Below are positions 14,466 to 44,635 of a stretch of 64,000 nucleotides of DNA, piece after piece; the first letter of the stretch is position 1; the number at the start of each line of letters is the position of its first letter. The position numbers and the translations under genes were made by a program. The DNA is from an uncultured Bacilli bacterium (lineage in GTDB: Bacteria > Bacillota_I > Bacilli_A > RFN20 > CAG-826), in contig CALVNF010000002.1 in NCBI GenBank assembly GCA_944349595.1, positions 175,468 to 239,467 on the forward strand, written 5' to 3'. Below the pieces are notes generated by a model that made no database searches, was not told where the DNA came from, and was given only the letters and a program-made list of their open reading frames with translations.

Positions 14466-14493
14466 TTTTATACTATATTATAATAATTGTGCG
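14466..14493 (+). promoter_or_regulatory. Sigma-A type promoter for thrS leader (TTGATT-N16-TATAAT)
   Basis: -35 TTGATT at 14466-14471 and -10 TATAAT at 14488-14493, upstream of the T-box leader. Confidence 0.45.
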
Positions 14494-14499
14494 TTGAAA

Positions 14500-14712
14500 A
14501 AGACATGATTATATATTGATTCAACACAGCGATTAAGAGTTTGGTGAAAGTCTTAAATGATAAATATATAATTACCACTTTGGAGCATCAAAAGTAATTT
14601 TGTCGTAACGCTTGCGTTAAAAGCATGATGAGAGCCAATAATTTTGTTGGAATTAAGGTGGTAACACGGAAAAAATTTCGCCCTTATGTAATATTACATA
14701 AGGGTTTTTATA
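14500..14712 (+). ncRNA. T-box riboswitch leader (threonine specifier ACC) with intrinsic terminator
   Basis: Conserved T-box sequence AATTAAGGTGGTAACACGG at 14651-14669. Terminator hairpin CCCTTATGTAAT/ATTACATAAGGG plus U-tract at 14681-14712. Candidate specifier ACC-A at 14574-14577. It lies immediately 5' of thrS. Confidence 0.7.
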
Positions 14713-28081: not shown

Positions 28082-28270
28082 ACGTACAAAATATAATACT
28101 TTAATTAAGAAAAAATTTCAACAATAAAATTACTTATTGTAAAAATATCAATCAGTAAAAATAATATTGATGGGGGTAAAATTAAATTAACCAAAAAGGT
28201 GAAAATAACATTTACCATTTTATGGAATATTCTATAATTTTCCAAAAGGAGTAATTACGGAATTAAATTG

Positions 28271-28754
28271 AATATTCTAACGCTTCGGAGCCACCAGTTT
28301 AAAGCTTGTGAGCCATACCCTATTTAACTAATAATTTTGACCTTGAGAGCCATCTTTAAATTATATCCCCTAAAATATTTTTACTTGAGTTTTTATTGAC
28401 TAATTTCAACCATAATTCAGGAAAATATTTTATATAATATTTTTTAAGACGCACAATTGTTCAACTTTTAAAACTTTAAATTCATATAAAAAAACATTAT
28501 TTTTAGTATTATTTAAATAAGGTGGATATGATTTTAGCTAATGTACGTTTTATATTTAAATAAATACAATATTAGTAATAAGAAATATTAAAATAAATTT
28601 TTTTAATTAATTGACAAAATATAGAAAGAAATTTTTAACGATTTATTTTATGAATTTATTTAAAAATGTAGATGCTCCGAAACTCTAAATCGCTAATTAA
28701 AGTGGGTATGGCTCTCAAGCTCTAAACTGAGGCCTCCCAAGCACTAGAATATTC
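28271..28754. mobile_element. ~484-bp non-coding element bounded by 51-bp imperfect inverted repeats (MITE-like or structured RNA)
   Basis: The left repeat at 28271-28321 and the reverse complement of 28704-28754 match at ~43 of 51 positions. The interior is ~380 bp of AT-rich sequence with no ORF. It lies in a 0.9-kb ORF-free gap between tRNA-Val and tRNA-Leu. Confidence 0.4.
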
Positions 28755-28939
28755 ACTTATAAGAGCAACAAATATTAATACTATACATAATTTTTTTAAT
28801 ACTAATTCTTTAGAAGAATTTAAAACGAAATTCATTTCTTCTAAGAATTTAAAAAATAAGCTCATTTCTTTAGAATTTGATATAAATAAAATGTGGAATA
28901 CAAAATCTACCTTGCATTGTATTCAAAGTTCGCCTAAAG

Positions 28940-29069
28940 AAATTATTAAAAGTTGACAGTTTTTAAAGTCTAAATAAAGTTGACAACACTGTCAACATAA
29001 AAATTAAATAACCCCCAAATAACCCCCAAGCAACAAAAAAAGCCGATAAAATCGGCATTATTTATTAAT
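28940..29069. repeat. tRNA-trailing conserved element, copy A
   Basis: Compared with 44433-44561: TTGACA..N27..TTGACAnnnnTGTCAA palindrome, ATAAAAAT, (AAATAACCCCC)x2, and the hairpin AAAAAAAGCCGATAAAATCGGC. The hairpin is a rho-independent terminator for the minus-strand tRNA-Leu. Confidence 0.6.
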
Positions 29070-29156
29070 TGGTGCTCGAAGAGGGACTTGAACCCTCATG
29101 AGTTTAACCTCGATGGATTTTGAGTCCATTGCGTCTACCAGTTCCACCATTCGAGC
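29070..29156 (-). tRNA. tRNA-Leu (anticodon CAA), class II with long variable arm
   Basis: Reverse complement: acceptor GCTCGAA/TTCGAGC, anticodon loop CTCAAAA, T-arm GAGGGTTCAAGTCCCTC, and CCA encoded. Confidence 0.8.
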
Positions 29157-29165
29157 GCTCTAATA

Positions 29166-30308
29166 TTATAAATGTTTTAATATATTATTACAAACAATAT
29201 AACTAGAAGAGAAACAAAGCATTAAATTATACCCTCCACATAAACCATTAATATCTAATATTTCTCCAGCAAAATATACATTTTTTTCTATTTTACTTTC
29301 TAAAGTGTCTTTATTTATGTTTAAAAATGATACGCCGCCAATTGTAACTTGTGAATCACTAAAACTATATGATTCTGCATATGAAAATTCGAATTGATAA
29401 AAATTATTTTTATAATATTTTATTATATAATTAAACATTCTAGAATCAAAAAAACCATGCAAAACCTCAATATTTTTATATTTTGTATAGTAATTCTTTA
29501 TCATTTTTTCATTTTCTTCATCAAATACTTTTAATATTATTTTTGGACTCTGAATGTTTTTATTTTTAATTATACTTTCAATATTAAAAATACAAATTCC
29601 ACTTAATCCATCTTCTTTAAAAATAACTTCACCATCTTCTGAATAAATTAAGTTTGATGAATTATCATATAAACAGGCTTTGCATTTTATACGTTCATTT
29701 TTTAACTCTTTTGTTGATTCAAGTGTTTTAATAGGACATAAACCTGGTTGTAAATTAGATATTGTATAAAAATGTTCTTTTAAAATATTAAATAAATTGC
29801 CATCACTTCCAAGATTTGGAGTAGATTTTCCTCCACTTGTAAAAATAAGAAAGTCAAAATCATCAATATTTAAATAATTTTCAAATATTAAATTATATTT
29901 TTTTAATACATTTTGATTATATGATTTTAATTTATGATTCAAATATACTTTAATATTTAATTTTTTAACCCAAAATTCTAAATTTTCAATGTAGTTTTTT
30001 GCACTTAAAGAAAATGGATAAACATATCCTTGTATATTTCTTGTTGCAATATTTAATTCTTTTAAAATATGAATTTGTTTATTTATATCACAATTTTTGT
30101 AAATTCTATAAGCTTCAATTGAATTAAAAAATTTTAAATTATCATTAAAGTTTCCTAAATTACATCTACCATTTCCAGTTGCATAAATTTTTTTCATTAA
30201 TTTATTTTCTTTTTCAAATATATAAACATCAATATCATTATTTTGTTTTTTTAATAATATTGATAATATAACTCCAGAATATCCGCCACCAATAATTGCA
30301 ACTTTCAT
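29166..30308 (-). CDS. HI0933/BaiN-family FAD-dependent flavoprotein
   Basis: MKVAIIGGGYSGV Rossmann motif and the ATGNGRCNLGN family signature. Confidence 0.75.
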   Translation of the reverse strand: MKVAIIGGGYSGVILSILLKKQNNDIDVYIFEKENKLMKKIYATGNGRCNLGNFNDNLKFFNSIEAYRIYKNCDINKQIHILKELNIATRNIQGYVYPFSLSAKNYIENLEFWVKKLNIKVYLNHKLKSYNQNVLKKYNLIFENYLNIDDFDFLIFTSGGKSTPNLGSDGNLFNILKEHFYTISNLQPGLCPIKTLESTKELKNERIKCKACLYDNSSNLIYSEDGEVIFKEDGLSGICIFNIESIIKNKNIQSPKIILKVFDEENEKMIKNYYTKYKNIEVLHGFFDSRMFNYIIKYYKNNFYQFEFSYAESYSFSDSQVTIGGVSFLNINKDTLESKIEKNVYFAGEILDINGLCGGYNLMLCFSSSYIVCNNILKHL

Positions 30309-30345
30309 GAGAATATAATACCACTTTTCTTATAATTTCCATAAT

Positions 30346-30370
30346 AAAAAGCCCGTTTTTAGCGGGCTTA
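30346..30370 (-). terminator. Intrinsic terminator after enolase
   Basis: Minus strand: AAGCCCGCTAAAAACGGGCTTTTT. Confidence 0.7.
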
Positions 30371-30398
30371 GTCTGTTTATGAATGTATTAAACTTTAG

Positions 30399-31736
<1,338 letters not shown>

Positions 31737-31773
31737 TCAAATTAAATATTAAATAATTAAAATTATTTATAAT

Positions 31774-34455
31774 TTACATTAAAGCACCAGAACCATTATA
31801 ATTTTTGTCATATATCATAATTAAAAATTCTGGGTGATCAATAAATGGATTTCTATTATGTTGATAATATTGATCAACATTATTATTTCTATTAACTTCA
31901 TAATCACTAACTGGATCTTGACCACTTGTTGCCCATTTATATAAAGCAGCAAAATCTCCATGAAGTCCATTTGCTCCAGAGGTGAAATTATTATATAAAG
32001 TATTGTCAATATTACCACCCACTTCTAAATCTTTTTCACCACTATCTCCTTCATATCTAACAGCCATATAGAATATAGTTCTTGCAATATCACCTTTAAA
32101 TTCATCTTTTGGTTCAAAATATGATGAGTCTCGATAATTTCCAATCATAGTCGATCTAAATTGTGGTTTGCTATGATCAAGATTATCATTTTCTTCACCG
32201 ACAAATCCAAAATCTAAATTGCCTCTGCAACTATTTAGCCAGTTATCACATGGATGTAAATTATTTAAATCAGAACCTTCTGGAATTCTTGTATCAAAAT
32301 CACCATGACTTTTAGCCCAGACATGCTCCTTATTCATACCAGTAGATTTAGGATAACTTCCTTCATACATTATGATATAATTTTTTGAATTAAATGGATC
32401 TTCATCAATTAAATTAAAATCAGAAGAATCTAATTCTCCATATCCAAAAGTTGTGTGGTCATCAATTATATTATGTAATGCTTGTTTTAATTCAGCGCCT
32501 TTTAAACCTCTAACTGGTTCATAATAAGTATCAATACTTCCTTGATTTCCTCTTGATGGATAGATTGAATTATTTCCATATAAATAATCATAATTATCAT
32601 TATGAGATGTTTGTTCTTTAAATATAATGCTTAAAACATTATTTTCTTGAGTTAATCTGAATTTATAATTATTAGATGAAATAAATTCTCCACTATTACC
32701 ATTTAAAGTAATTGAAGAGACAAAATACCCATTATTTGGGGAAGTTTTAACATTTATGTAGTCTCCAACAAATAAATTGTTATTTGGAGTTACACTTACT
32801 TCACCTTCTCCAGTTTTATTTATAGTTAAATTAGCTTTAACTGGTTCTTTATTTAATAAATATGTGATATTAATTCCATATAAAATCGCTCTATTTTCAC
32901 CATTTGTTTTTAATTCAAGATTTGTAACATTATCAGTATTAAAAATATAGACATTATTACTTAAAACTTTTTGAGTAATAGATTTTAAGGAAGTTGTGAA
33001 ATTTTTTAAAGTTAATGTAATTTCCGGATCATCATCATTATATTGTTTAACAATTAATTCTACAGAAACAATGCTTATTGTACTAGCAAATTCAAATTCA
33101 ATAGTCGCACCTTTACTAGTTCCTGTTCTAAAACTATCTTCATTACTATCTTTATATAAGTTTGAAGAAGTAACTGAATTTATTTCAATATCTTTAAGTT
33201 CTAAATTATTTTCTTGTAAAGAAAAATAACCATTAGTATTTAAATTGACAAAATTAATACTTCCAGTAACTTCGTTTAATATAGGTTCATCTTTTATAAA
33301 ACTTGCAGTTATTAAATATTGTTTTTCTTCATTAACTACAAAACTTAAAGTTGATAAAATTGAAGCACCATTAACTTCAAGAGATGATAATTTGTAACCA
33401 TCATTTGGAGTAACAATTACTTCTATTTCACTTCCTAATAAAACACTTGAATTATTTTCATAATCTTTAAATTTTACACTACCATTTTCTATATTATTAG
33501 ATATAGAGATAGTTGCGTATTTATCAGTATTTCCAATATATTTAAATGTTGCATTAACAACATATTCAATATATTCTTCCACTATAAAAGATTTACTACT
33601 TTTAATTGAAATACCATTAACAGTTAAAGTATCTAATTCATAATCTTTATTGGGAATAACTTCAATTTCAACCTTTGTATTAAGACTAACTTTTGAATTA
33701 TTTTCATAATTTTTAAACTTTATGACACCATTTTTTATACTTTCGTCAATTTTAATAGTTGCATATTGTTCTACAGGTGGAACATATTTAAAACTTGCTG
33801 AAACTAAATATGTTATTTCTTCTTGTGCAATAAAACTTAAACTTGATTTTATTGAAACTCCATTAACTGTTAGTGTGTCTAGTTCATAATTGGTATCAGG
33901 AGTTATTTTTAAATCAACATTTGTATTTAATTTAACTTTATCGCCGTTATTAAAATTGATAAATTCGATTTTTCCATTTTGTATATTTTCATCGATTTTA
34001 ATAGTAGCAAATTTTTCTTCTTCACTTATTTTTTTAAATGTTGCATCTACATAATAATCTTTTTCTTCATTGACAATAAAACTTAAACTTGATTTTATTG
34101 AAAGTCCATTAACAGTCAATGTATCAAGTTCATAATTTACATCTGGATTTACAACAACATTAATTTTTGTATTAAATAATACTTTTGAATTATTTGAATA
34201 ATCTTCAAATCTAATTGAACCATTTATGGTATTTTCATTAAATATAATAGTTCCATATTTTTCATCTTGACTAGTTGTTGTAGTTGTTGAATTTGAATTA
34301 CTAGAGGTATTTTGACTTGTCGTATTAGTTGAAGTTGTTATATTAGTTGTAGTTTGATTTGAAGAACTACTTGAATTTGAAGTAGTTAAATTAGTTGTGC
34401 TACATGATGTTAAGAAAAGTGTTAACATCATTAATAAATTAAATTTTCTAAACAT
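31774..34455 (-). CDS. Surface lipoprotein with Ser/Thr-rich linker, four tandem ~85-aa repeats and C-terminal Endonuclease-I (EndA/NucM-type) nuclease domain
   Basis: Signal peptide plus lipobox LFLTSC. Linker TTSNSSSSSNQTTTN... Four repeats of YATIKIDExIxNGxIxF...DYELDTLTVNG(L/V/I)SIKSSLSF. The C-terminus carries the motifs NKEHVWAKSHG, NLHPCDNWLNSCRGN and GDIARTIFYM, which are characteristic of the Endonuclease_1 family. Confidence 0.6.
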   Translation of the reverse strand: MFRKFNLLMMLTLFLTSCSTTNLTTSNSSSSSNQTTTNITTSTNTTSQNTSSNSNSTTTTTSQDEKYGTIIFNENTINGSIRFEDYSNNSKVLFNTKINVVVNPDVNYELDTLTVNGLSIKSSLSFIVNEEKDYYVDATFKKISEEEKFATIKIDENIQNGKIEFINFNNGDKVKLNTNVDLKITPDTNYELDTLTVNGVSIKSSLSFIAQEEITYLVSASFKYVPPVEQYATIKIDESIKNGVIKFKNYENNSKVSLNTKVEIEVIPNKDYELDTLTVNGISIKSSKSFIVEEYIEYVVNATFKYIGNTDKYATISISNNIENGSVKFKDYENNSSVLLGSEIEVIVTPNDGYKLSSLEVNGASILSTLSFVVNEEKQYLITASFIKDEPILNEVTGSINFVNLNTNGYFSLQENNLELKDIEINSVTSSNLYKDSNEDSFRTGTSKGATIEFEFASTISIVSVELIVKQYNDDDPEITLTLKNFTTSLKSITQKVLSNNVYIFNTDNVTNLELKTNGENRAILYGINITYLLNKEPVKANLTINKTGEGEVSVTPNNNLFVGDYINVKTSPNNGYFVSSITLNGNSGEFISSNNYKFRLTQENNVLSIIFKEQTSHNDNYDYLYGNNSIYPSRGNQGSIDTYYEPVRGLKGAELKQALHNIIDDHTTFGYGELDSSDFNLIDEDPFNSKNYIIMYEGSYPKSTGMNKEHVWAKSHGDFDTRIPEGSDLNNLHPCDNWLNSCRGNLDFGFVGEENDNLDHSKPQFRSTMIGNYRDSSYFEPKDEFKGDIARTIFYMAVRYEGDSGEKDLEVGGNIDNTLYNNFTSGANGLHGDFAALYKWATSGQDPVSDYEVNRNNNVDQYYQHNRNPFIDHPEFLIMIYDKNYNGSGALM

Positions 34456-34478
34456 AATATAAATTTTTGTTCTATCTA

Positions 34479-35669
34479 TTATTGTTTATTAGATTTAAAA
34501 CATGACATTAAAATTTTATAAACATCATCATGATTTAAAATTTTATAGCTTGTTGGTGATAAATTTACACTATATGCAATTTCTTTAACTAAATCTGCAT
34601 CATGAACGCCAAGTTCTTCTAAACTTGTTGCAAGTTTAGAAGCTTTTATAAATTCTTCTAGACAATCAATTCCTTTTAAAGCGACTTCACCATCACTTTT
34701 TCCGTTTGGATTTACATTAAAAACATTTGTTGCAAATCTTTTAAATTTTTCAAGTCCATCTTTATATATGTATCTATAATAATTTGGAGAAATAACTGCT
34801 AATCCCATGCCGTGAGCGCAATCTGTATATGCTCCAATTTGGTGTTCAATATTATGAACATTCCAATCTTGAGTTTTTCCAACTCCTAAAATTGTATTTA
34901 ACGCCATAGAAGCAATCCACATTAAATTACTTCTTGCAATATAATTTTTAGGATTTTGATAAGACAAATATGAATTTTTTATTAATGATTTCATTAAAGC
35001 TTCTAATAAATCATCACTTACATTATCATCACTTCCGGAAAAATATTGTTCCATCATGTGAGAAAATGCATCAAAAATCCCACTTCTCATTTGATATTCA
35101 GAAACAGTATATGTTAATTTTGGGTTTAATATTGAAAATTTTGGTTCGCAACCAAAAAATACTCTTCCTTCTTTAATATTTAAATCATAATTAGTTATAA
35201 CAGATCCGCCATTCATTTCACTTCCGGTTCCAACCATTGTAAGAATTGATCCAACTGGAACAATTTTTTGATTTTTATCTAGTGGTTTTTTAGCTAAATA
35301 TAAATCTTTAAATACATCACCTTTTTCGTAATATGCACCAACCGATATTCCTTTTGCACAGTCAATAACACTACCGCCACCAACTGCTAATATTAAATCA
35401 ACATTATTTTCTTTTACCAATTTAATACCTTCTAAAACTTTTTCGTATGATGGATTTGGTCTAACATCACTTAATTCAAATACATTCTTTTTTGAATTAT
35501 TTAAAATTTTAATTAAATAATCATATAATCCAATTTTTTTAATTGATTCATGACCATAAACTAATAAAATATTATCACCATAATTTGTTAATTCATCTTT
35601 TAAATAATCAAGTGATTTTTCTCCAAAATATATCTTTGTTTTGTTTTGATAAATGAAATCTTGCAACAT
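34479..35669 (-). CDS. Iron-containing alcohol dehydrogenase
   Basis: GGGSVIDCAKG motif. The start is set at MLQDFIY (35669) because GGAGGGG sits 3-4 nt upstream. The ORF-track start at 35681 would include the SD. Confidence 0.8.
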   Translation of the reverse strand: MLQDFIYQNKTKIYFGEKSLDYLKDELTNYGDNILLVYGHESIKKIGLYDYLIKILNNSKKNVFELSDVRPNPSYEKVLEGIKLVKENNVDLILAVGGGSVIDCAKGISVGAYYEKGDVFKDLYLAKKPLDKNQKIVPVGSILTMVGTGSEMNGGSVITNYDLNIKEGRVFFGCEPKFSILNPKLTYTVSEYQMRSGIFDAFSHMMEQYFSGSDDNVSDDLLEALMKSLIKNSYLSYQNPKNYIARSNLMWIASMALNTILGVGKTQDWNVHNIEHQIGAYTDCAHGMGLAVISPNYYRYIYKDGLEKFKRFATNVFNVNPNGKSDGEVALKGIDCLEEFIKASKLATSLEELGVHDADLVKEIAYSVNLSPTSYKILNHDDVYKILMSCFKSNKQ

Positions 35670-35774
35670 AAACCCCTCCAAAAATAGTTGTCAAAACCTA
35701 ATTCTTTATTATTATATAATAATAAAAATTTTTTTCTACTTAGGTATTTACAATAAAAATTAATTATATTAAAA

Positions 35775-35792
35775 TAGTTCGGTGGCGAACTA
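35775..35792. promoter_or_regulatory. Perfect 18-bp palindrome TAGTTCG-GTGG-CGAACTA overlapping the marR SD; candidate MarR autoregulatory operator
   Basis: Seen directly in the sequence. It ends 3 nt before the marR ATG (35795), in the divergent region shared with the Fe-ADH gene. Confidence 0.4.
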
Positions 35793-35794
35793 AA

Positions 35795-36241
35795 ATGGTT
35801 AATTATCAATTATTAAAAGAATTGTTAGATACTAAAAAAAATATATCATCACTACTTGATGATTTTTTTAAAGATGAATTCGATTCTCATCTATTTGCAA
35901 TGATTTTAATCTATATTTCTGAAAACAATCAAATAGTTCATCAAAAAGATATTGAAGATGAATTTAAATTTAAAAAATCAACAACTAGTGATTTTTTAAA
36001 TTTTTTAGAAAAAGAAGGATATATTGTAAAACTAACAAGTCCAAATGATTCTAGATACAAAGAAATTCTATTAACTAATAAAGCTAAAGAAAGAATTCCT
36101 AAGTATAAAGAATTGATTAAAAATGTAAATAAAGCATTAACTGATAATTTAGGTGATGCTGAAATTGAAAAATTTAAAACCATTATTGAAAAATTAAATG
36201 AAAATATAAGGAGGTATTCACATGACAAACTCAAAAAGTGA
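35795..36241 (+). CDS. MarR-family transcriptional regulator
   Basis: 148 aa. Winged-HTH region (..IVHQKDIEDEFKFKKSTTSDFLNFLEKEGYIV). First gene of an operon with two ABC exporter genes. Confidence 0.75.
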   Translation: MVNYQLLKELLDTKKNISSLLDDFFKDEFDSHLFAMILIYISENNQIVHQKDIEDEFKFKKSTTSDFLNFLEKEGYIVKLTSPNDSRYKEILLTNKAKERIPKYKELIKNVNKALTDNLGDAEIEKFKTIIEKLNENIRRYSHDKLKK

Positions 36242-38048
36242 GAAAAAAGTTCCATTTATGCTTTATGTTAAAACACTATTAAAATCGGTAAGACAGTATA
36301 AAAAAGAAACTTTTTTAACAATGTTATTTGTTGGTCTTGAAACGATTTTAGAATGTGTAATTCCATTTATTATGATGTTTCTTATTAATGATATTGAAGC
36401 ATATGATCCAGCAAACGGTATGCAAACTCTTTATAAAATACTGATTTGGGCAGCTGTTTTGTTAGTTTTAGCTGGATTTTCACTAACTTGTGGTATTTTG
36501 TCAGGTAGATTTTGTGCATTCGCGTCAGTTGGATTTTCAAAAAATTTAAGGCAAGATATTTATTATAAAATTCAAACTTTTTCATTTACTAATATTGACA
36601 AATTTTCTGTATCAAGTTTAGTTACGAGACAAACAACTGATATTATGAATATTCAACTTGCATATTTCTTAGTAATTAGAATTGCAGTTCGTAGTATTTT
36701 AATGTTAATTTTCTCAATTGTTATGGCATTTATTGCGGCTCCTAGTATTGCTTGGATTTATTTAATTTTAGTTCCAGTTTTATTTGGTGTCTTATTAGTA
36801 ATTGTTTTAATCTGTTATCCAATTTATAGTGCTGGATTTAAAAAATATGATAAATTAAACGAATCAATTCAAGAAAACGTTAAAGGAATGAGAACGGTTA
36901 AAACTTATGTTAGAGAAGATTATGAAAAAGAAAAATTTCACAAACAAGCATATAGTTTACAAAAATTCTTTAAAAAAGCTGATAGATTAGCGGCTTTGAG
37001 TTCACCAATTCTTCAATTCTTTATGTGGGCTTCAATGTTATGCATTATATCAATTGGATCATTTTTAATTATTCAAAATAATATTGATGGTATTGAAAAC
37101 GGAATGACTGTTGGCGCTTTGACTTCTTTAATTACTTATGGTGCTCAATGTTTATCATCAATTATGATGGTAACTATGATTTTAACAATGATTATTATGT
37201 CATTAGAATCAATCCATAGAGTCTATGAAGTATTAACAGAAGAAAATAAATTATTATTAGAAGAAAATGTAGAAGGTGCTAAACTTACTAATTTAGATGA
37301 TGGTAGCATCGAATATAAAGATGTTTATTTTAGATATGATAATACAAGTGAAAAATATGCTCTTGAAGATATTAATTTGAAAGTTAAATCTGGTCAAACG
37401 CTTGGAATTATTGGTGCTACTGGTTCTTCTAAGTCGACTTTAGTTAATTTATTGCCTCGATTTTTTGAAGTAACAAAAGGTTCTTTAACAATCGGAGGAC
37501 ATGATATTAAAGAATATGATATTAGAAGTTTAAGAGAACAAATTGGTATGGTTTTACAAAAAAATATTTTGTTCTCTGGAACAATTAAAGATAATCTTTT
37601 ATGGGGAAATAAAGACGCGAGCGACGAACAAATTGTTCAAGCTTGTAAAGTTGCCCAAGCCGATGAATTTATAAGAAATTTTAAAGATGGTTATAATTCA
37701 AGAGTTGAACAAGGAGGAACTAATCTCTCTGGTGGACAAAAACAAAGATTGTGTATTGCTCGAGCAATAATTAAAAATCCAAAAATATTAATCTTAGATG
37801 ACTCTACTAGTGCTGTTGATACAAAAACTGATGCCTTTATTAGAGATGGTTTAAAAAGAGTATGTCCTAACACAACAAAAATTATCATTGCTCAAAGAAT
37901 TTCTTCTGTTCAAGATTGCGATCAAATTATTGTCATGAAAGATGGTAAAATTGATGGAATTGGAAATCATGATTATTTAGTTAAAAATAATGATATTTAT
38001 AAAGATATTTACAATATCCAAAATAAAATTGGAGGTAATCAAGAATGA
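36222..38048 (+). CDS. ABC transporter, fused permease/ATP-binding subunit (type I exporter, heterodimer half A)
   Basis: Six N-terminal TM helices. Walker A GATGSSKST, signature LSGGQKQR and Walker B ILILDD. SD AAGGAGG lies 7 nt upstream. It ends in TGA within an ATGA overlap. Confidence 0.85.
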   Translation: MTNSKSEKKVPFMLYVKTLLKSVRQYKKETFLTMLFVGLETILECVIPFIMMFLINDIEAYDPANGMQTLYKILIWAAVLLVLAGFSLTCGILSGRFCAFASVGFSKNLRQDIYYKIQTFSFTNIDKFSVSSLVTRQTTDIMNIQLAYFLVIRIAVRSILMLIFSIVMAFIAAPSIAWIYLILVPVLFGVLLVIVLICYPIYSAGFKKYDKLNESIQENVKGMRTVKTYVREDYEKEKFHKQAYSLQKFFKKADRLAALSSPILQFFMWASMLCIISIGSFLIIQNNIDGIENGMTVGALTSLITYGAQCLSSIMMVTMILTMIIMSLESIHRVYEVLTEENKLLLEENVEGAKLTNLDDGSIEYKDVYFRYDNTSEKYALEDINLKVKSGQTLGIIGATGSSKSTLVNLLPRFFEVTKGSLTIGGHDIKEYDIRSLREQIGMVLQKNILFSGTIKDNLLWGNKDASDEQIVQACKVAQADEFIRNFKDGYNSRVEQGGTNLSGGQKQRLCIARAIIKNPKILILDDSTSAVDTKTDAFIRDGLKRVCPNTTKIIIAQRISSVQDCDQIIVMKDGKIDGIGNHDYLVKNNDIYKDIYNIQNKIGGNQE

Positions 38049-39952
38049 AAAATAAAACAAATATTTTAGCGAGACTTGTCAAAGATATTTTTCTTTCAAA
38101 TCCACTTGTATTTATATTATCAATTATTTGCGTATTATTATCTTCAGTTGGAATTATAATAGCTCCAATTATGTTACAAGAAATTGTAAATAATGTTGTA
38201 GAACCAGCTTTAAAAGGCAATTTAGTTAATTGGCAAGAACCACTTATTAACAACATTATTATTCTTGCGACTTGTTATTGTGTTGCATTAATTGGTACAT
38301 TTTCTTATACACAATTAACTCAAAATTTAGGTAATAACTTCATGCAAAAAACAAGAGAAAGATGTTTCTCTCATATGCAAGATTTACCAATCAAATTTTT
38401 TGACCAACACAATCATGGTGACATTATGTCTGTTTACACAAACGATATTGACTCAATTAGACAATTTGCCGCAAACTCACTTCCAGTAATGTTTAACTCA
38501 AGTTTTATTGTTTTGGTTAACTTTATATTAATGATTACTATTTATTCAGTGTGGCTTGCAATTGTTGTTTTAATTGGTGTTATTGTGATGCTTTTTGTGA
38601 CAAAAATTGTTGGTTCAAGAAGCTCTAGAAATTATGTTACACAACAAAAAATGATCGGTAAAATCGAAGGTTTTATTGAAGAAAATATGAATGGTTTAAA
38701 AGTTATTAAATCGTTCTGTCATGAAGAAGAAAGTAAAAAAGATTTTGATAAAGTTAATTCAGATTTATTTATTGCTGCAACCAATGCAAATAAATTTGGT
38801 AATATTTTAATGCCAATTCTTGGAAATATAGGAAATATTGTTTATATTGCAATCGCAATTGTTTCTGGTATTTTCTTAGTTTTACAAGGACAAAATTATA
38901 ATATTGTAAGTGGTTTACAAAAAACTTTAGAAATTGGAACAATTGTTGCATTTTTAACCGTAACAAGACAAGTAACTTATAATTTCTCTGAAGTAGCAAA
39001 CCAAGTTAACTCTATTGCTTTAGCAATTGGAGGAAGTAAGAGAGTTTATGCTTTAATTGACGAAAAACCCGAAGAAGATAATGGTTATGTAAAATTAGTT
39101 AAAGCTAAATATGATGAAAAAGGAAATATTGTAGAATGTCCAAAAGATTCCAAAGATTTTACAATTTGGGCATGGAAGCATCCTCATACTGCCGATAATT
39201 CCGTTACTTATCAAAAACTAGAAGGCGATATTAGAATGTTTAATGTTGATTTTAGTTATGATAATAAAAATATTGTCTTACACGATATTACATTATATGC
39301 AGAACCAGGTCAAAAAGTTGCTTTTGTTGGAGCAACTGGTGCTGGAAAGACGACTATTACTAACTTATTAAATAGATTCTATGATATTGCAGATGGAAAA
39401 ATAAGATATGATGGAATAAATATAAATAAAATATGTAAAAAAGATTTAAGAAGATCAATTGGTATGGTCTTACAAGATACATCACTATTTTCTGGAACAG
39501 TCATGGATAATATTAGATATGGACAACTCGATGCAACTGATGAACAATGTATTGAAGCTGCTAAACTTGCAAATGCTCATGATTTTATTGAAAGACTACC
39601 TCATGGTTATCAAACAATGTTAACCGGTGATGGAACAAATCTTTCTCAAGGTCAAAGACAATTATTATCTATCGCTAGATGTGCTTTACATAATGCTCCT
39701 GTTATGATTTTAGATGAGGCTACTTCTTCAATTGATACAAGAACAGAAGCTTTAGTAACAAAAGGTATGGATAATTTAATGAAGGGAAGAACTGTATTTG
39801 TTATCGCTCATAGATTGTCAACGATTCAAAATTCTGATGTTATTATGGTTTTAGATCATGGTAGAATTATCGAAAGAGGCGATCATGATTCATTAATTGC
39901 TGAACAAGGAGTATATTATCAACTTTATACTGGTGCTTTTGAACTTGAATAG
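38045..39952 (+). CDS. ABC transporter, fused permease/ATP-binding subunit (heterodimer half B)
   Basis: Walker A GATGAGKTT, signature LSQGQRQL, Walker B MILDEATS and H-loop AHRL. Confidence 0.85.
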   Translation: MKNKTNILARLVKDIFLSNPLVFILSIICVLLSSVGIIIAPIMLQEIVNNVVEPALKGNLVNWQEPLINNIIILATCYCVALIGTFSYTQLTQNLGNNFMQKTRERCFSHMQDLPIKFFDQHNHGDIMSVYTNDIDSIRQFAANSLPVMFNSSFIVLVNFILMITIYSVWLAIVVLIGVIVMLFVTKIVGSRSSRNYVTQQKMIGKIEGFIEENMNGLKVIKSFCHEEESKKDFDKVNSDLFIAATNANKFGNILMPILGNIGNIVYIAIAIVSGIFLVLQGQNYNIVSGLQKTLEIGTIVAFLTVTRQVTYNFSEVANQVNSIALAIGGSKRVYALIDEKPEEDNGYVKLVKAKYDEKGNIVECPKDSKDFTIWAWKHPHTADNSVTYQKLEGDIRMFNVDFSYDNKNIVLHDITLYAEPGQKVAFVGATGAGKTTITNLLNRFYDIADGKIRYDGININKICKKDLRRSIGMVLQDTSLFSGTVMDNIRYGQLDATDEQCIEAAKLANAHDFIERLPHGYQTMLTGDGTNLSQGQRQLLSIARCALHNAPVMILDEATSSIDTRTEALVTKGMDNLMKGRTVFVIAHRLSTIQNSDVIMVLDHGRIIERGDHDSLIAEQGVYYQLYTGAFELE

Positions 39953-39976
39953 TTAAAATATAAAGGGCTATAAATT

Positions 39977-40948
39977 ATGGTTAATGTCTATAAAGCAGAA
40001 AATAACGAATTAGTTAAAAAAAGTTTAACTAATTCTAATATCAAAGATTTAAATCCAATTGAAACTAGAACTTGGATTGATTTAAATAAGCCTACTTTAG
40101 AAATTTTACAATCATTATCAAAACTTACTAATATTCCAATGAGTTTATTAAATTCTGCTCTTGATGAAGAAGAATCAGCTCATATTGATAATGAGGATGA
40201 TAATGTTTTAATTGTTTTAGACGTTCCATATATTGATAAAGAAACAAATAATATCAGTACAAAACCATTTATTATTGCCTATAATTCAGATTATTTTTTA
40301 ACAATTTCAAAGTATAATAATACTTTAATTCCAAATTTATTAAATAAAGTTAAAAATTTAAAGCCTCAAAAACAATTACGTTTTACTTTATTAATTATTT
40401 ATAATCTTGCCAAAGAATTTATTTCTACTTTAAAACATATTGATAGTCAAACAAAAGACGTTGAAAAAAGACTACATACATCCATGAAAAATAAGGAAAT
40501 ATTTGAACTTATGGATATTAATAAAACTTTTGTTTATATATCAAACGCTATCAGTGCTAATAAAGTTGTCTTAAATAAATTATTGAAATCATCATTATAT
40601 AAAAAATATGATGAAGATATTGATTTAATTGAAGATACAGAAGTTGAATTAAACCAAGCTGCTGAAATGTGTAATCTTTATCGAGACATTTTGGCTGGTA
40701 CTATGGATGCTTTTGCTAGTATTATTTCAAATAATTTAAATATCGTTATGAAAACATTAACAATTATAACAATTGTTATTTCAATTCCAACATTAATTGC
40801 ATCTATTTTTGGAATGAATGTTGATTTGCCATTTGTAGATGAAAATAAATATGGATTTTATATAATTATTGCAATATCAGTAGTTCTTGCAATATTAGGA
40901 GCAATTTTATTAATTTATTTTACCAGAAACAAAAAACCAAAAAAGTAA
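39977..40948 (+). CDS. corA: CorA-family Mg2+/Co2+ transporter
   Basis: C-terminal two TM helices with the GMN motif (IFGMNVDLPF). Confidence 0.8.
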   Translation: MVNVYKAENNELVKKSLTNSNIKDLNPIETRTWIDLNKPTLEILQSLSKLTNIPMSLLNSALDEEESAHIDNEDDNVLIVLDVPYIDKETNNISTKPFIIAYNSDYFLTISKYNNTLIPNLLNKVKNLKPQKQLRFTLLIIYNLAKEFISTLKHIDSQTKDVEKRLHTSMKNKEIFELMDINKTFVYISNAISANKVVLNKLLKSSLYKKYDEDIDLIEDTEVELNQAAEMCNLYRDILAGTMDAFASIISNNLNIVMKTLTIITIVISIPTLIASIFGMNVDLPFVDENKYGFYIIIAISVVLAILGAILLIYFTRNKKPKK

Positions 40949-41000
40949 AAAAACTCTGCAAAACCTTAATATTTTTTAAAAATTAGTTATTTTTTAGTAC

Positions 41001-41906
41001 TTATTCAGTAATTTCTATTTCAAATTTATAAATAATTTTTTCACTTGGTTTTAATGTTTTATAAACAATTTCATTATCCATTTTAGAAGTTGAAGGCTCA
41101 AGACCTAATGCGTAATCACCACTTTTATATGATTTCCATTCAGCGATTATTGGTAATAAACTACTATCATATTTTAATTTAAATTTTAATTTTGATTTTT
41201 TGTTAAAAACTTCAACTAATCCATTATTATTTAAACAATAAAATACTTCTTCTATTGAATTATCGCATGGTGTTTCAAACATTTTTTGTCTTGATATGTT
41301 TTTGTTTGCAATTTCTGTTTTTGCTACAATATTTTCATTTCCAAATTTAATCTCACAATTTTCATCTAAAAATGGATATCCAAGATTAAAGTGATATAAA
41401 AGACAATATTTTGCTTCTTCATAACCAATATTTGAAACTTCATCTTCAATATGGAATTTACTAGATAAATAATTAAATTTTATTGTTCTTTTAAGTTTTA
41501 AATTTTGTTCAAAAAACTTATTGTCAAATACTTCACCTTCAATAATAATTTCGTTTTCATTAACAATTTTTTTAGTTAATATTGCTTTTTTTAAATGATA
41601 CATTCCGTGTTTAAATTTACCATTCATTGTCCCAATATTATCTAAACCACAAGTATAAAGTAATCCTCCTTCAAATCTATAAGGAAAATCATCTAATTTT
41701 GAATTAATACCCATTTTTGATAAATATGAAATATTAACTCCTTTATATTTTAAACTTGTAATATCTAAACCATTATCAACAGAAATTAAGCATTCAAAAA
41801 CTCCGTTATATACATCAATTAAATTTTTTCCTTTAGCTTCACCTTCGTTTAAAATAATTGATCTAGCATACATTATTTGTTCTAAATTTGAAATTCTTTT
41901 ATTCAT
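41001..41906 (-). CDS. Aldose-1-epimerase (mutarotase)-like fold protein, function uncertain
   Basis: 301 aa. Weak resemblance to galactose-mutarotase-like family proteins. Last gene of the kinase-aldolase operon. Confidence 0.35.
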   Translation of the reverse strand: MNKRISNLEQIMYARSIILNEGEAKGKNLIDVYNGVFECLISVDNGLDITSLKYKGVNISYLSKMGINSKLDDFPYRFEGGLLYTCGLDNIGTMNGKFKHGMYHLKKAILTKKIVNENEIIIEGEVFDNKFFEQNLKLKRTIKFNYLSSKFHIEDEVSNIGYEEAKYCLLYHFNLGYPFLDENCEIKFGNENIVAKTEIANKNISRQKMFETPCDNSIEEVFYCLNNNGLVEVFNKKSKLKFKLKYDSSLLPIIAEWKSYKSGDYALGLEPSTSKMDNEIVYKTLKPSEKIIYKFEIEITE

Positions 41907-41910
41907 AATA

Positions 41911-42762
41911 TTAATCCTTCATAGAAAATATTTTTATTGCTTCTTCAACATTTTTTTCCATAGCTTTCATTGCTTCAAATTCCACATCGTGTAAATAACT
42001 AGTTTTATTTGATTCAATTAATTTTTTCGCAGCTTCATAACCTGCTTTTGACATATATGAATAATAATTTATTTTTCTAATTCCAGCTTTAATACAATCT
42101 TGGAATTGTTCTTTGCTTAAACCACTTCCTCCATGCATAACTAATGGAACATTTACAACTTTTTTAACTTCTTTAATTACATTTACATCTAATACTGGTT
42201 TTTCTTTATAAAAACCATGAGCTGTCCCAAAAGCAATTGCTAAGGCATCAACATTTGTTTTTTCTACAAATTCTTTTGCTTCATTTGGTTTTGTATAATA
42301 ATATTCTTTTGATTTTGTTTTATTACTAACACCATCTTCAGATGTAATTAATTGTCCAATTTCCCCTTCAACACTTATATTTTTAGGATGACACATATCA
42401 ACAACTTGTTTTGTAAATTTAATATTTTCTTCAAATGGTAAACTTGAAGCATCAATCATAATTGAAGTAAAACCTAAATTTATTGCTCTTTTTATCATTT
42501 CTAAAGTTGTTCCGTGATCTAAATGAACACAAACTGGAACTTTACAATTTTTTGCTAAACTTAACATAACAGGTGCAACTAATGAAATATCATTATAAAC
42601 ATTATGAACTTCAGCATGAGCTAAAATTACAGGTTGATTTAATTTTTCTGCAGCTTTTATAATTGCTTGTAATGAATCAAATCCAGTTGCATTAAACATT
42701 CCTACTGCGCATTTATTATCTTCTGCATATTTTAATATTTCTTTTAAATTAACTAGCATCAT
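41911..42762 (-). CDS. Class II ketose-bisphosphate aldolase (tagatose/fructose-1,6-bisphosphate aldolase family)
   Basis: ...HLDHGTTLE... and MHGGSG motifs of the FbaA/GatY/KbaY family. 283 aa. Confidence 0.8.
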   Translation of the reverse strand: MMLVNLKEILKYAEDNKCAVGMFNATGFDSLQAIIKAAEKLNQPVILAHAEVHNVYNDISLVAPVMLSLAKNCKVPVCVHLDHGTTLEMIKRAINLGFTSIMIDASSLPFEENIKFTKQVVDMCHPKNISVEGEIGQLITSEDGVSNKTKSKEYYYTKPNEAKEFVEKTNVDALAIAFGTAHGFYKEKPVLDVNVIKEVKKVVNVPLVMHGGSGLSKEQFQDCIKAGIRKINYYSYMSKAGYEAAKKLIESNKTSYLHDVEFEAMKAMEKNVEEAIKIFSMKD

Positions 42763-42790
42763 TTTACTCCATTTTATTTAGATTATTTTT

Positions 42791-43804
42791 TTAAAATTTT
42801 CGTCTATTAAATTTATTTAATTTCATTACTTCATTTATATTTTTTGCATTACCTATCGAATCATAGCTAGCTAAATTATTAGCCGCCGAACAAGATGCTA
42901 TTTCTAAAATTTCTTTGTCATTCAAGTTATGTAAAATACCGTAAAGGCATCCTGCACAAAATGCATCACCAGCTCCAACACTTCCTTTAATATATCCATT
43001 AGGTAATAATAAAGATCCAAGGACTGTAAATAAATTATTACTAAAAATTATTCCTAGTTCTGGACAATGTATAATTATTTTTTTAAAATTGCCTAATTGT
43101 GATATTTTTTTACAAATATTTTTTAAATTATTTACAATTAGATTTTCATTATCATCTCTTACTTTAATATCTGTGATTAAACTTGCTTCAATTTCATTGA
43201 TAATTAAATAATCACAATATTTTAAAGATGGCATAACTACTTCTTTAAATCTTGGAGAGTCCTCGCTTACTAAATCTAGTGATATTACATAGTCTTTGCT
43301 TTTTAAATAATTTAGAAATTTTGCCATAACTGTCCCATATTCATCTTCTTTAGCATCAAAAGCGTCTAGCAACATTAAATATCCTAAATGAACATGACAT
43401 GGTTTTAATAAAAAATTACTTAAATCTATATCATTTGGAGAAAAAGTTTTATTAGTTCCTTTAAAGTGAAAAAATGTTCTATTTCCATTTTTATTTGTCA
43501 TAACATTTGTGAAACCAGTATTATTAGATTTATCTTTATTAATATTATTTATATTTATATTATATTTTTTTAATTTATCTAATATAAATTTTCCTTCATT
43601 ATCATCCCCAATTTTTCCAAAAGCATAAACTTCTATACTTTCATCTAAACATTTTAAATCGATGGCTGTATTACACAAACATCCTCCAATTGAATTTTCA
43701 ATACTATTAATATTAACTAACATTCCTTCTTTAGGATAAGAATTAATGGTCATTATTTTATCTACAATAGCATTTCCAATAATATAAATTCTATTATTTT
43801 TCAT
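42791..43804 (-). CDS. PfkB-family carbohydrate kinase (ketose / ketose-phosphate kinase)
   Basis: The GAGDAFCAG motif near the C-terminus is the PfkB signature 2. 337 aa. Confidence 0.75.
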   Translation of the reverse strand: MKNNRIYIIGNAIVDKIMTINSYPKEGMLVNINSIENSIGGCLCNTAIDLKCLDESIEVYAFGKIGDDNEGKFILDKLKKYNININNINKDKSNNTGFTNVMTNKNGNRTFFHFKGTNKTFSPNDIDLSNFLLKPCHVHLGYLMLLDAFDAKEDEYGTVMAKFLNYLKSKDYVISLDLVSEDSPRFKEVVMPSLKYCDYLIINEIEASLITDIKVRDDNENLIVNNLKNICKKISQLGNFKKIIIHCPELGIIFSNNLFTVLGSLLLPNGYIKGSVGAGDAFCAGCLYGILHNLNDKEILEIASCSAANNLASYDSIGNAKNINEVMKLNKFNRRKF

Positions 43805-44072
43805 GTTAAATTCCTTTTACTCAACTATTATACCTTATTACTTTTGACTATTCTTTAAAATTTAATAACTAAAAAATTATCAAACCATTTTTTAATTAAT
43901 AAAAATTTATTATCTAATATCAATAAAATGAAAGGGCATTCTTAAATATGATTAAAATATTTCTCTTTTCTATTTTTATTTTTCAAGTTATATATATTCA
44001 TGTAAATTTCTTTTAACAACTGTATCTTCCTATTTACAATAATATAGCCTTATGTAATACTATAAATAAGAA

Positions 44073-44141
44073 AAGCACAGCCTGATGGGTGTAGGTCTGC
44101 AATTGTAAGACTGCCATTGACAGGAGTGCTTTTTTTGTTAA
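44073..44141. terminator. Extended nested hairpin followed by T7 (bidirectional terminator-like structured element) in an ORF-free 630-bp region
   Basis: AAAAGCAC-AG-CCTG-[ATGG..GGTCT-loop-AGACT..CCAT]-CAGG-AG-GTGC-TTTTTTT, with an A-tract on the 5' side. Confidence 0.35.
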
Positions 44142-44432
44142 TAAATAGTTGTAATAATAAGATTATTTAAAATAATGCTCATAAATCCAACACTTGATAG
44201 TAATTTTTTTAATATTTATAAATTCTATTATTTTTGAGAGTAAAATTTACCATCTTAAATTAATTATTTAATATAAGAGATCGTTCCACAGACTATTATA
44301 TGAATTTTTAATTTATAATTTCTTCTAAACTTGATTAAAATAGCAAACGCTTGAACATTTAATTGTTCACGTCCAAATATTAACAATGATATAGATTATA
44401 CTTTAATATTAAAGTTATTAAAAATGATTAAT

Positions 44433-44561
44433 ATTGACACTTTGTAATCATTAAAGAACTTTGACACCTGTGTCACCATAAAAATCAAATAACCCCAAAA
44501 TAACCCCCAAATAACACCCAAATAACAAAAAAAGCCGATAAAATCGGCGTTTTATATCATT
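44433..44561. repeat. tRNA-trailing conserved element, copy B (three tandem AAATAACCCC-type units)
   Basis: Homologous to 28940-29069. Contains TTGACAcctgTGTCA, ATAAAAAT, (AAATAACCCC / AAATAACCCCC / AAATAACACCC), and the AAAAAAAGCCGATAAAATCGGC hairpin that terminates tRNA-Gly. Confidence 0.6.
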
Positions 44562-44635
44562 TGGAGCACCATGCGAGAATCGAACTCGTATCATTGGCTT
44601 GGGAAGCCAAGGTTCTACCATTGAACTAATGATGC
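44562..44635 (-). tRNA. tRNA-Gly (anticodon CCC), 4-nt variable loop
   Basis: Reverse complement: acceptor GCATCAT/ATGGTGC (one G.U wobble), D-arm GTTCAATGGTAGAAC, anticodon stem TTGGC/GCCAA with loop TTCCCAA, T-loop TTCGATT, discriminator T, and CCA encoded. Confidence 0.6.

Follow-up and report, generated by a model that had tools for sequence, protein, structure and literature searches.

Why do two unrelated tRNA genes of an uncultured Bacilli bacterium carry the same composite tail? In the stretch of 64,000 nucleotides analysed here (the window; 24–26% G+C), the minus-strand genes for tRNA-Leu(CAA) (29070–29156; ARAGORN, and 54.8 bits with the Rfam tRNA model) and tRNA-Gly(CCC) (44562–44635; ARAGORN) are directly adjoined by related segments at 28940–29069 and 44433–44561, respectively. 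An initial annotation had claimed that these segments align along their whole length, and MAFFT indeed produced a full-length alignment with a mean column identity of 82%; a repeat search of the window returned the pair at 76–82% ungapped identity. The shared terminator was confirmed as well: a 24-nt sequence, ACAAAAAAAGCCGATAAAATCGGC, is the same in both copies, and the hairpin, positioned 13 nt past each tRNA, is terminator-like, with a 6-bp stem including four G–C pairs, a 3-nt loop and a following U7 tract. The two to three tandem G-repeats described earlier number two in the Leu copy and three in the Gly copy, but two of the latter three are imperfect. Similarly, the Leu copy has a perfect palindrome (TTGACAacacTGTCAA, 28980–28995), and that of the Gly copy contains one mismatch (TTGACAcctgTGTCAC, 44461–44476). 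The module itself is real, yet its boundaries had to be corrected, as the conserved unit extends from the tRNA end to AAAGTTGACA (28949) in the Leu copy and from the tRNA end to AATATTGACA (44430) in the Gly copy.

Both modules are oriented with their tRNAs, and their parts are given here as read on the tRNA (minus) strand. The Leu module, anchored at the 3' end of its tRNA, opens with a 13-nt spacer, ATTAATAAATAAT (29057–29069), that is specific to Leu-CAA and identical in the phage attachment site of contig L176 described below. There follow the 22-nt terminator-like hairpin GCCGAT-UUU-AUCGGC with U7 (29035–29056; terminator scan, RNA fold and nine-sequence alignment), two tandem 11-nt G-repeats of sequence GGGGGTTATTT (29006–29027), the perfect palindrome GTTGACA-gtgt-TGTCAAC (28979–28996) and a third half-site, TGTCAACTTT (28949–28958), that marks the right boundary of the module; the last two elements are in what we refer to as the phage-type state. 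Homology to the attP and attL copies stops at this boundary in every context. The Gly module comprises its own 13-nt spacer, AATGATATAAAAC (44549–44561; nine-sequence alignment), the same 22-nt terminator-like hairpin with U7 (44527–44548), three tandem G-repeats (GGGTGTTATTT, GGGGGTTATTT and tGGGGTTATTT; 44487–44519), a degenerate palindrome, GTGACAcaggTGTCAA (44461–44476), and the third half-site TGTCAATATT at its right boundary (44430–44439), with palindrome and half-site both in a host-type state.

Within the window, the module is specific to these two sites. The hairpin pattern GCCGATAAAATCGGC, allowing up to two mismatches, matches exactly twice against an expectation of 0.04; AAATAACCCCC, with up to one mismatch, matches six times versus 0.66 expected (about ninefold), and five of the six matches lie inside the two modules. 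The sole three C5 runs on the plus strand also fall within the modules. The palindrome pattern by itself is not enriched in the window (eight matches versus 6.1 expected). The initial annotation had allowed for a generic terminator behind every tRNA operon; no module is present behind the remaining tRNA units (Val, Thr-Glu-Asn and Trp), and it is therefore not of this kind. Repeats of the REP, BIME or MITE type would be expected in many tRNA-independent copies; the module has two copies in 64 kb, both behind tRNAs.

A module of this composition could in principle have a nucleic-acid function of its own, as a plus-strand sRNA with a C-rich seed, as a G-quadruplex on the tRNA strand or as a tRNA 3'-processing signal. 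The hairpin is present in the minimum-free-energy fold, and the terminator scan rates it as terminator-like on either strand. Folding of the Leu copy exceeds that of its shuffles (z = −3.9), and the module offers C-rich unpaired motifs of the sort that Firmicute sRNAs typically show. However, the Gly copy shows no such advantage over shuffles (z = −1.4), and a search with Rfam 15 revealed, besides the tRNAs, nothing at E < 0.01 in or beside either module and nothing in the modules even at E ≤ 1. Reading of both copies yielded no conserved plus-strand promoter hexamers with a proper spacer, and a plus-strand promoter for a C-rich sRNA was rejected on this ground. The G-quadruplex proposed earlier fares no better, as the canonical motif demands four runs of at least three G with loops of 1–7 nt, whereas the Leu and Gly copies have two and three G runs. 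As the attachment-site evidence presented below already explains the pattern of conservation, including the sharp right boundary, we consider an autonomous RNA or DNA structure very improbable. An sRNA or riboswitch in the two non-coding tails was also rejected because Rfam gave no match.

The two copies are direct repeats of the same orientation, 15.5 kb apart, and could conceivably represent attL and attR, or the terminal repeats, of one old insertion spanning 29070–44432, as the initial annotation had suggested. In another sense this idea came near the truth: the prophages of the lysogens described below are indeed flanked by two module copies. The interval in the window, however, encodes enolase, class II fructose-bisphosphate aldolase, a PfkB kinase, an Fe-ADH alcohol dehydrogenase, CorA, ABC transporters/exporters and an HI0933-like oxidoreductase, that is, core metabolic genes with no integrase or phage protein among them; TyrRS, S4 and EzrA are further genes of the window, and together with enolase and others they agree with an uncultured low-GC bacterium of the Bacilli type. 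When six phage proteins were compared with the window by tblastn, nothing was found at E < 0.03, and the integrase had no match at all. Moreover, the tRNAs in front of the two copies are both complete and differ from each other, where a single insertion would show a tRNA and a fragment of the same one, and both sites are used separately as insertion points in other genomes. A single 15.5-kb insertion is thus scarcely credible, and a decayed prophage in the window was rejected for the absence of protein remnants in the tblastn comparison. The 15.5 kb between the copies are core chromosome, the window contains no prophage and both of its attachment sites are unoccupied.

An occupied counterpart of the Gly site is found in a relative, on the 879-kb contig CASDYC010000001.1. 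This contig emerged from a loose AAATAACCCCNAAATAAC scan of species-representative genomes that returned at least 119 loci, mostly chance matches or unrelated arrays; it has at least three matches to the narrow pattern, and all of those listed are linked to a tRNA or a prophage. At the first locus (L094), the orthologous tRNA-Gly gene (4990–5063) is intact and followed by the module, and over 5.2 kb the left flank shares 95.8% identity with the window. Beyond the module lie genes for an XRE-family protein, a DUF3644 protein and a 368-residue tyrosine integrase. At the second (L048), 45,532 bp from the L094 copy, the last 18 nt of tRNA-Gly (TTCTCGCATGGTGCTCCA) precede a second module. The downstream flank of L048 still matches the window at 44579–44051, and the window flank downstream of 44430–44439 correspondingly still matches the B' flank beside this attR. 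The two modules are direct repeats that bracket a 45.5-kb element. Integrated elements are recognised by an intact tRNA gene, a displaced fragment of that tRNA and an internal integrase (PMC4383910), and for tRNA-Gly the intact gene and the displaced 3' fragment are found in direct orientation. Within the element, the integrase is encoded at a distance of 1.5 kb from attL and matches PF00589 at 1e-22 and the family phrog_1 ('integrase') at 1.5e-49. The element further encodes an XRE regulator and an M78/ImmA-like protease, and its sister copies encode a repressor, DUF739, YqaJ and RecT. As judged from sequence, the Gly site of the window is the empty version of the site that is occupied in CASDYC. 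The non-coding tail of about 630 nt after the Gly module (43805–44432 versus 2760–3109 of L048) is only 72% identical between window and CASDYC, in comparison with 96% for the other flank, and beyond this tail the gene content differs, with a pfkB/aldolase block in the window and an oligopeptide ABC transporter in CASDYC; the tRNA-Gly site is therefore a strain-variable junction.

In other metagenomes, the same phage occurs at two further tRNA genes. The P0001 integrase (98% identical) is found in L152, where repressor, DUF739, YqaJ and RecT genes follow directly behind tRNA-Leu(CAA) and its module; identity to the window is 92% over 28949–29919. The opposite end of such a lysogen, attR, is represented by L181/L182: here, the phage right end leads through the P arm to a displaced tRNA-Leu(CAA) fragment, next to which is a module with two G-repeats; beyond the module lie tRNA-Val and a GH3 gene, in a host flank 96.4% identical to window 28168–22178. 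In L175, a sister phage (attL) resides behind the last gene, tRNA-Leu(UAA), of a Val-Tyr-Gln-Lys-Leu cluster. In CASDYC (L061), this Leu-UAA site is empty with the module present, and the hosts of L175 and L061 are 98.9% identical. A further attL at tRNA-Gly is present in L188. The four integrases are 96.7–98.9% identical over 368 residues and serve tRNA-Gly, tRNA-Leu(CAA) and tRNA-Leu(UAA). Empty sites that bear the module are both copies of the window, L061, L186 and L187. All attachment-site junctions were pieced together from assemblies of different samples. The contigs L182 and L003, both from short-read assemblies, end exactly at the terminator or spacer of the module, as would be expected if multiple copies of this repeat disturb assembly.

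Next to the Leu module of the window, non-coding DNA extends from 28948 to the tRNA-Val flank at 28169. Most of this stretch (28169–28944, 776 nt) is specific to the window and absent from the 96.4%-identical L181 host, which has 293 unrelated nucleotides instead. It contains an imperfect inverted repeat of 85 nt (28266–28350 and 28674–28758; 76% complementary, 323 nt apart), and neither an ORF of at least 50 residues nor an Rfam match was found within it. The stretch may be a MITE-like element or decayed cargo, possibly unrelated to the attachment site.

The unintegrated form of the attachment site could be read from L176 (a contig of 46,137 bp), L177 and L178, in which ARAGORN finds no tRNA and P arm, fragment, module and P' arm are contiguous. 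In this attP, a P arm of about 300 nt leads into a 17–18-nt duplicate of a tRNA 3' end; a short spacer separates the latter from the GCCGATTTTATCGGC-T7 hairpin, and there follow three GGGGGTTATTT repeats, the TTGACAnnnnTGTCAAC palindrome, a third TGTCAAC and then the first phage gene. In these contigs, an 18-nt fragment of the tRNA-Leu(UAA) type is joined to a spacer of the Leu-CAA type, the hairpin, three G-repeats, TTGACAatgtTGTCAAC and TGTCAACTTT. A Gp49/HTH gene pair and the integrase gene come next, so that the entire module is carried by the phage. The P arm of attP is 82.6% identical to that at the CASDYC attR, and all P arms retain one extra GGGGGTTATTT, about 135 nt in, beside three TGACAAAATA repeats, whereas on the P' side phage copies have three GGGGGTTATTT. 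L178 and the host contig L186, with an empty Gly site, share the sample ERZ24773244. More distant integrases (43–46% identity; P0003, P0004, P0018 and P0021) were also considered; they do reside in prophages, but the module is missing there and is therefore not a trait of the wider integrase family. Searches of IMG/VR with the P'-arm pattern and the integrase found nothing. The terminator pattern matched nothing in viral contigs; its 21 matches in JGI metagenomes are without exception generic terminators that lack the module. Among deposited phages, the attP DNA had no match and the best integrase match is 32% identical.

Taken together, these data indicate, with a probability of roughly 0.85, that the module is the common attachment region of temperate phages or phage-like integrative elements of about 45 kb that use a 368-residue tyrosine integrase and infect this Bacilli lineage. 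We speak of a phage rather than another integrative element on the basis of lysogeny and early-gene modules in about 20 kb of each element. On integration behind a tRNA gene, the phage copy would take the place of the tRNA 3' end and of all sequence downstream of it (attL), and the old host tail would come to lie at the distal prophage end (attR). Different tRNAs would thus be trailed by the terminator, the G-repeats and the palindrome because phages put them there. Two earlier suggestions were right in spirit. The module does form a dispersed repeat family, albeit a small one with at least three chromosomal sites (tRNA-Gly-CCC, tRNA-Leu-CAA and tRNA-Leu-UAA) plus the phage copy; and it very probably is a protein-binding signal, being the recombination region of a tyrosine integrase. 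As to the remainder of the phage, its right end (L176 1–9129, L180 1633–9390 and L181 1297–9390) encodes a giant polyvalent protein of 2,585–2,702 residues with LPD3/PBECR3 domains. Cargo varies beside the P arm (RloB and AAA_21 in L176, an M78 protease and a 157-residue protein in CASDYC), and on the P' side it consists of DUF3644 or a toxin–antitoxin-like Gp49/HTH pair.

An alignment of nine attachment sequences (attP, attL copies, attR copies, empty sites and the window copies) separates the modules into two types. The hairpin is invariant in all nine and, together with its T-run, in eight, the L181 attR having a run of six T. The perfect palindrome and TGTCAACTTT are found in attP and all attL copies. 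By contrast, the host-side copies (Gly attR, Leu-CAA attR, the empty Leu-UAA site and the window Gly copy) have degenerate palindromes and TGTCAAT(A/T)TT, and right halves of host and phage type are only 52–68% identical. The window Leu copy is 97% identical to the L176 attP in the left half (spacer to repeats) and 95% in the right half (palindrome to boundary), and is therefore of the phage type. It has the look of a phage tail that was deposited recently; the Gly copy resembles an older, degenerate tail of the host type.

The module could alternatively be native to the host, a tRNA terminator with a regulatory or promoter cassette that was copied behind tRNA genes and adopted by phages, with strand exchange in the hairpin or the G-repeats. 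Module-bearing empty sites in several strains (the window, L061, L186 and L187) would agree with such an origin, as would the near-invariance of hairpin and T-run in the face of differing tRNA fragments, and the service of one integrase (at least 96.7% identity) to three tRNAs. In CASDYC, furthermore, no difference separates attL from attR over the 27 nt between the last G-repeat and TTGACA, and divergence is seen only once the palindrome spacer is reached. These observations are outweighed by several others. The right halves are degenerate on the host side while palindrome and promoter are intact in the phage, and the window's other tRNA units lack copies. At the Leu-CAA site, the segment after the T-run is CTTTCTT with three repeats in attL (L152) but GTTG(C/T)TT with two repeats in attR (L181) and in the window; repeat number and 7-nt segment thus segregate as phage type at attL and host type at attR, which places the exchange to the left of the G-repeats. 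Finally, in lysogens of either kind (Gly and Leu-CAA), the displaced fragment corresponds to the tRNA that is occupied, as expected for exchange at the fragment boundary. We therefore regard a host-native module as improbable and favour deposition by phages.

Where within the phage-borne region the strands are exchanged can be narrowed further. In the lysogens, the phage adjoins the tRNA, and the other prophage end consists of the displaced tRNA fragment and then the module. All three P arms join the fragment at one and the same tRNA position, two nucleotides before the 3' strand of the T-stem. In the L181 attR, an 8-nt segment, ACCGGTTC, that matches the T-arm of tRNA-Leu(UAA) abuts the T-stem 3' strand of tRNA-Leu(CAA), and the two halves cannot pair; by all appearances this is a junction in the T-loop. 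Exchange most likely takes place at the T-loop/T-stem boundary, where the displaced fragment begins, and each phage variant would carry the fragment of its target tRNA. A first model had placed the exchange at the TTGACA palindrome and was weakened by the site-matched fragment of L181 and by the segregation of two versus three repeats at Leu-CAA. For one integrase that acts at three tRNAs, the invariant hairpin may be an equally attractive core. The mosaic attP of L176, with its Leu-UAA fragment and Leu-CAA-type spacer, implies that extra homologous exchanges within the module must occur. The presence of the module at empty sites also means that its first arrival is not accounted for by simple integration and precise excision.

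Individual parts of the module can be assigned putative roles. The phage-supplied hairpin would terminate the tRNA transcript and insulate the prophage. Three 11-bp G-repeats, spaced by about one helical turn, lie on the P' side and a fourth lies in the P arm; they represent candidate arm-type sites for the integrase or architectural (bending) sites. In the integrase, Pfam detects the catalytic domain and, below threshold, a SAM-like domain, but no arm-binding domain. The TTGACA of the palindrome forms the −35 element of a promoter-like site, TTGACA-N17-TAGACT/AATAAT, that points from the tRNA into the XRE-family gene which always follows. Palindrome and third half-site could hence constitute the promoter/operator of this first phage gene. 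That the palindrome and promoter are perfect in phage copies but decayed on the host side suggests a function selected on the phage, and a putative operator/promoter role fits this decay. Unrelated lambda-like phage contigs of higher GC content (L123 1168–1213; L130/L138; L137/L140; L015 7283–7337; also L004, L014, L031, L050, L057, L076, L093, L097 and L100) also contain arrays of four to five tandem GGGGGTTATTT units at a distance of 3 nt from TTGACA. There the arrays sit between terminase gpA and gpW-like/portal genes, with four runs that meet the G4 motif. The occurrence of such an array beside TTGACA at a position other than an attachment site argues for a role linked to the promoter, not the integrase. 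Since it recurs in unrelated lambda-like phages, the G5TTATTT array beside TTGACA may be a widespread architectural or regulatory element of phages. Arrays of at least three G-repeat units are also present in very diverse bacteria.

More tentatively, the attachment region might act as a portable cassette by which one integrase is retargeted: after cleavage at the T-loop/T-stem boundary, homologous exchange within the shared tail would swap the tRNA fragment of attP. This possibility, to which we give less than even odds, would explain why integrases of at least 96.7% identity reside at three tRNAs, why their fragments are matched to the site, why the L176 attP is a mosaic and why L181 retains a remnant resembling Leu-UAA. 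If true, it would amount to a natural reprogramming of one integrase among tRNA genes through the swap of a short attP cassette, with relevance for integrase engineering and for the evolution of prophage insertion sites.

Phages and genomic islands with tyrosine integrases are known to integrate at tRNA genes (Reiter 1989; Williams 2002), and as such the attachment region is of a well-known kind; it is unusual in that the shared block is long and composite and in that near-identical integrases make use of three tRNA genes. Long attachment-site identities over a tRNA 3' end are known from HP1 (about 182 bp), SLP1 (about 112 bp) and the streptococcal phage T12 (about 96 bp), none of which is known to use more than one chromosomal site. 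The present case resembles them in an identity of about 100 bp or more over the tRNA 3' end but differs in having three paralogous sites and mosaic attP variants. In lambda, the heterobivalent attP contains the arm-type sites P1/P2 and P'1–P'3, and attB lacks arm repeats. The attP described here resembles this layout, with three tandem repeats on one arm, located at about +55 to +90 relative to the fragment boundary, an additional copy about 135 nt off on the other arm and a second repeat family, TGACAAAATA, present three times in the P arm; in contrast to lambda, the repeats are also found in the bacterial sites and Pfam detects no arm-binding domain in the integrase. As in the tRNA-targeting elements collected in Islander (PMC4383910), an intact tRNA at one end and a displaced 3' fragment at the other are in direct orientation, the integrase lies inside near the tRNA, and the element supplies the replacement 3' end, as seen in CASDYC and L152/L181. 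Unlike in those elements, the shared block here is identical over about 110 nt in one lysogen and homologous over about 165 nt overall, it holds a terminator, tandem repeats and a promoter/operator-like palindrome, and near-identical integrases use three tRNAs with two amino-acid identities (compare PMC4383910). A parallel in size and target is the integrase of the Lactobacillus phage mv4, with 369 residues versus 368 here, likewise from a temperate phage of a Firmicute and directed to a tRNA 3' end, that of tRNA-Ser; it tolerates variable core sites, with a 7-bp overlap setting specificity (doi 10.1101/2023.11.06.565760). Given this tolerance, one integrase with three targets is plausible if attP carries the matching fragment. 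The attB of mv4 is a 21-bp site at a single tRNA-Ser, and neither a long module nor the use of several tRNAs is described there (doi 10.1101/2023.11.06.565760).

For the locus at hand, the phage reading would account for a shared terminator and flanking motifs behind unrelated tRNAs of this gut-type bacterium, in that temperate phages rewrote the tails of tRNA genes. It also marks two empty and, by prediction, directly usable integration sites in this genome, and it defines attP, attB, attL and attR for an uncharacterised phage–host pair, with 32% identity to the best-matching integrase among deposited phages.

The 22-nt terminator is also seen outside this family. In contigs from human-gut metagenomes (L155, L159, L160, L162, L165, L169, L170 and L173), it is part of a different conserved unit, composed of CCCGTCTTTAG..TTCTCAC.., the hairpin and TTATGTTATAAT..TATGGTGAGTATGGTGAG, followed by an ORF; this unit looks like the end of another mobile element, unrelated to the module. 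Two additional features of the window were noted. A T-box leader (98 bits; 14485–14688, plus strand) lies on the strand opposite to the TyrRS gene downstream of the Leu site. At 33295–34264, four tandem repeats of 246 nt (60–74% identical), which correspond to repeated InlB B-repeat-like domains, are found within the gene for an 893-residue secreted endonuclease-I protein.
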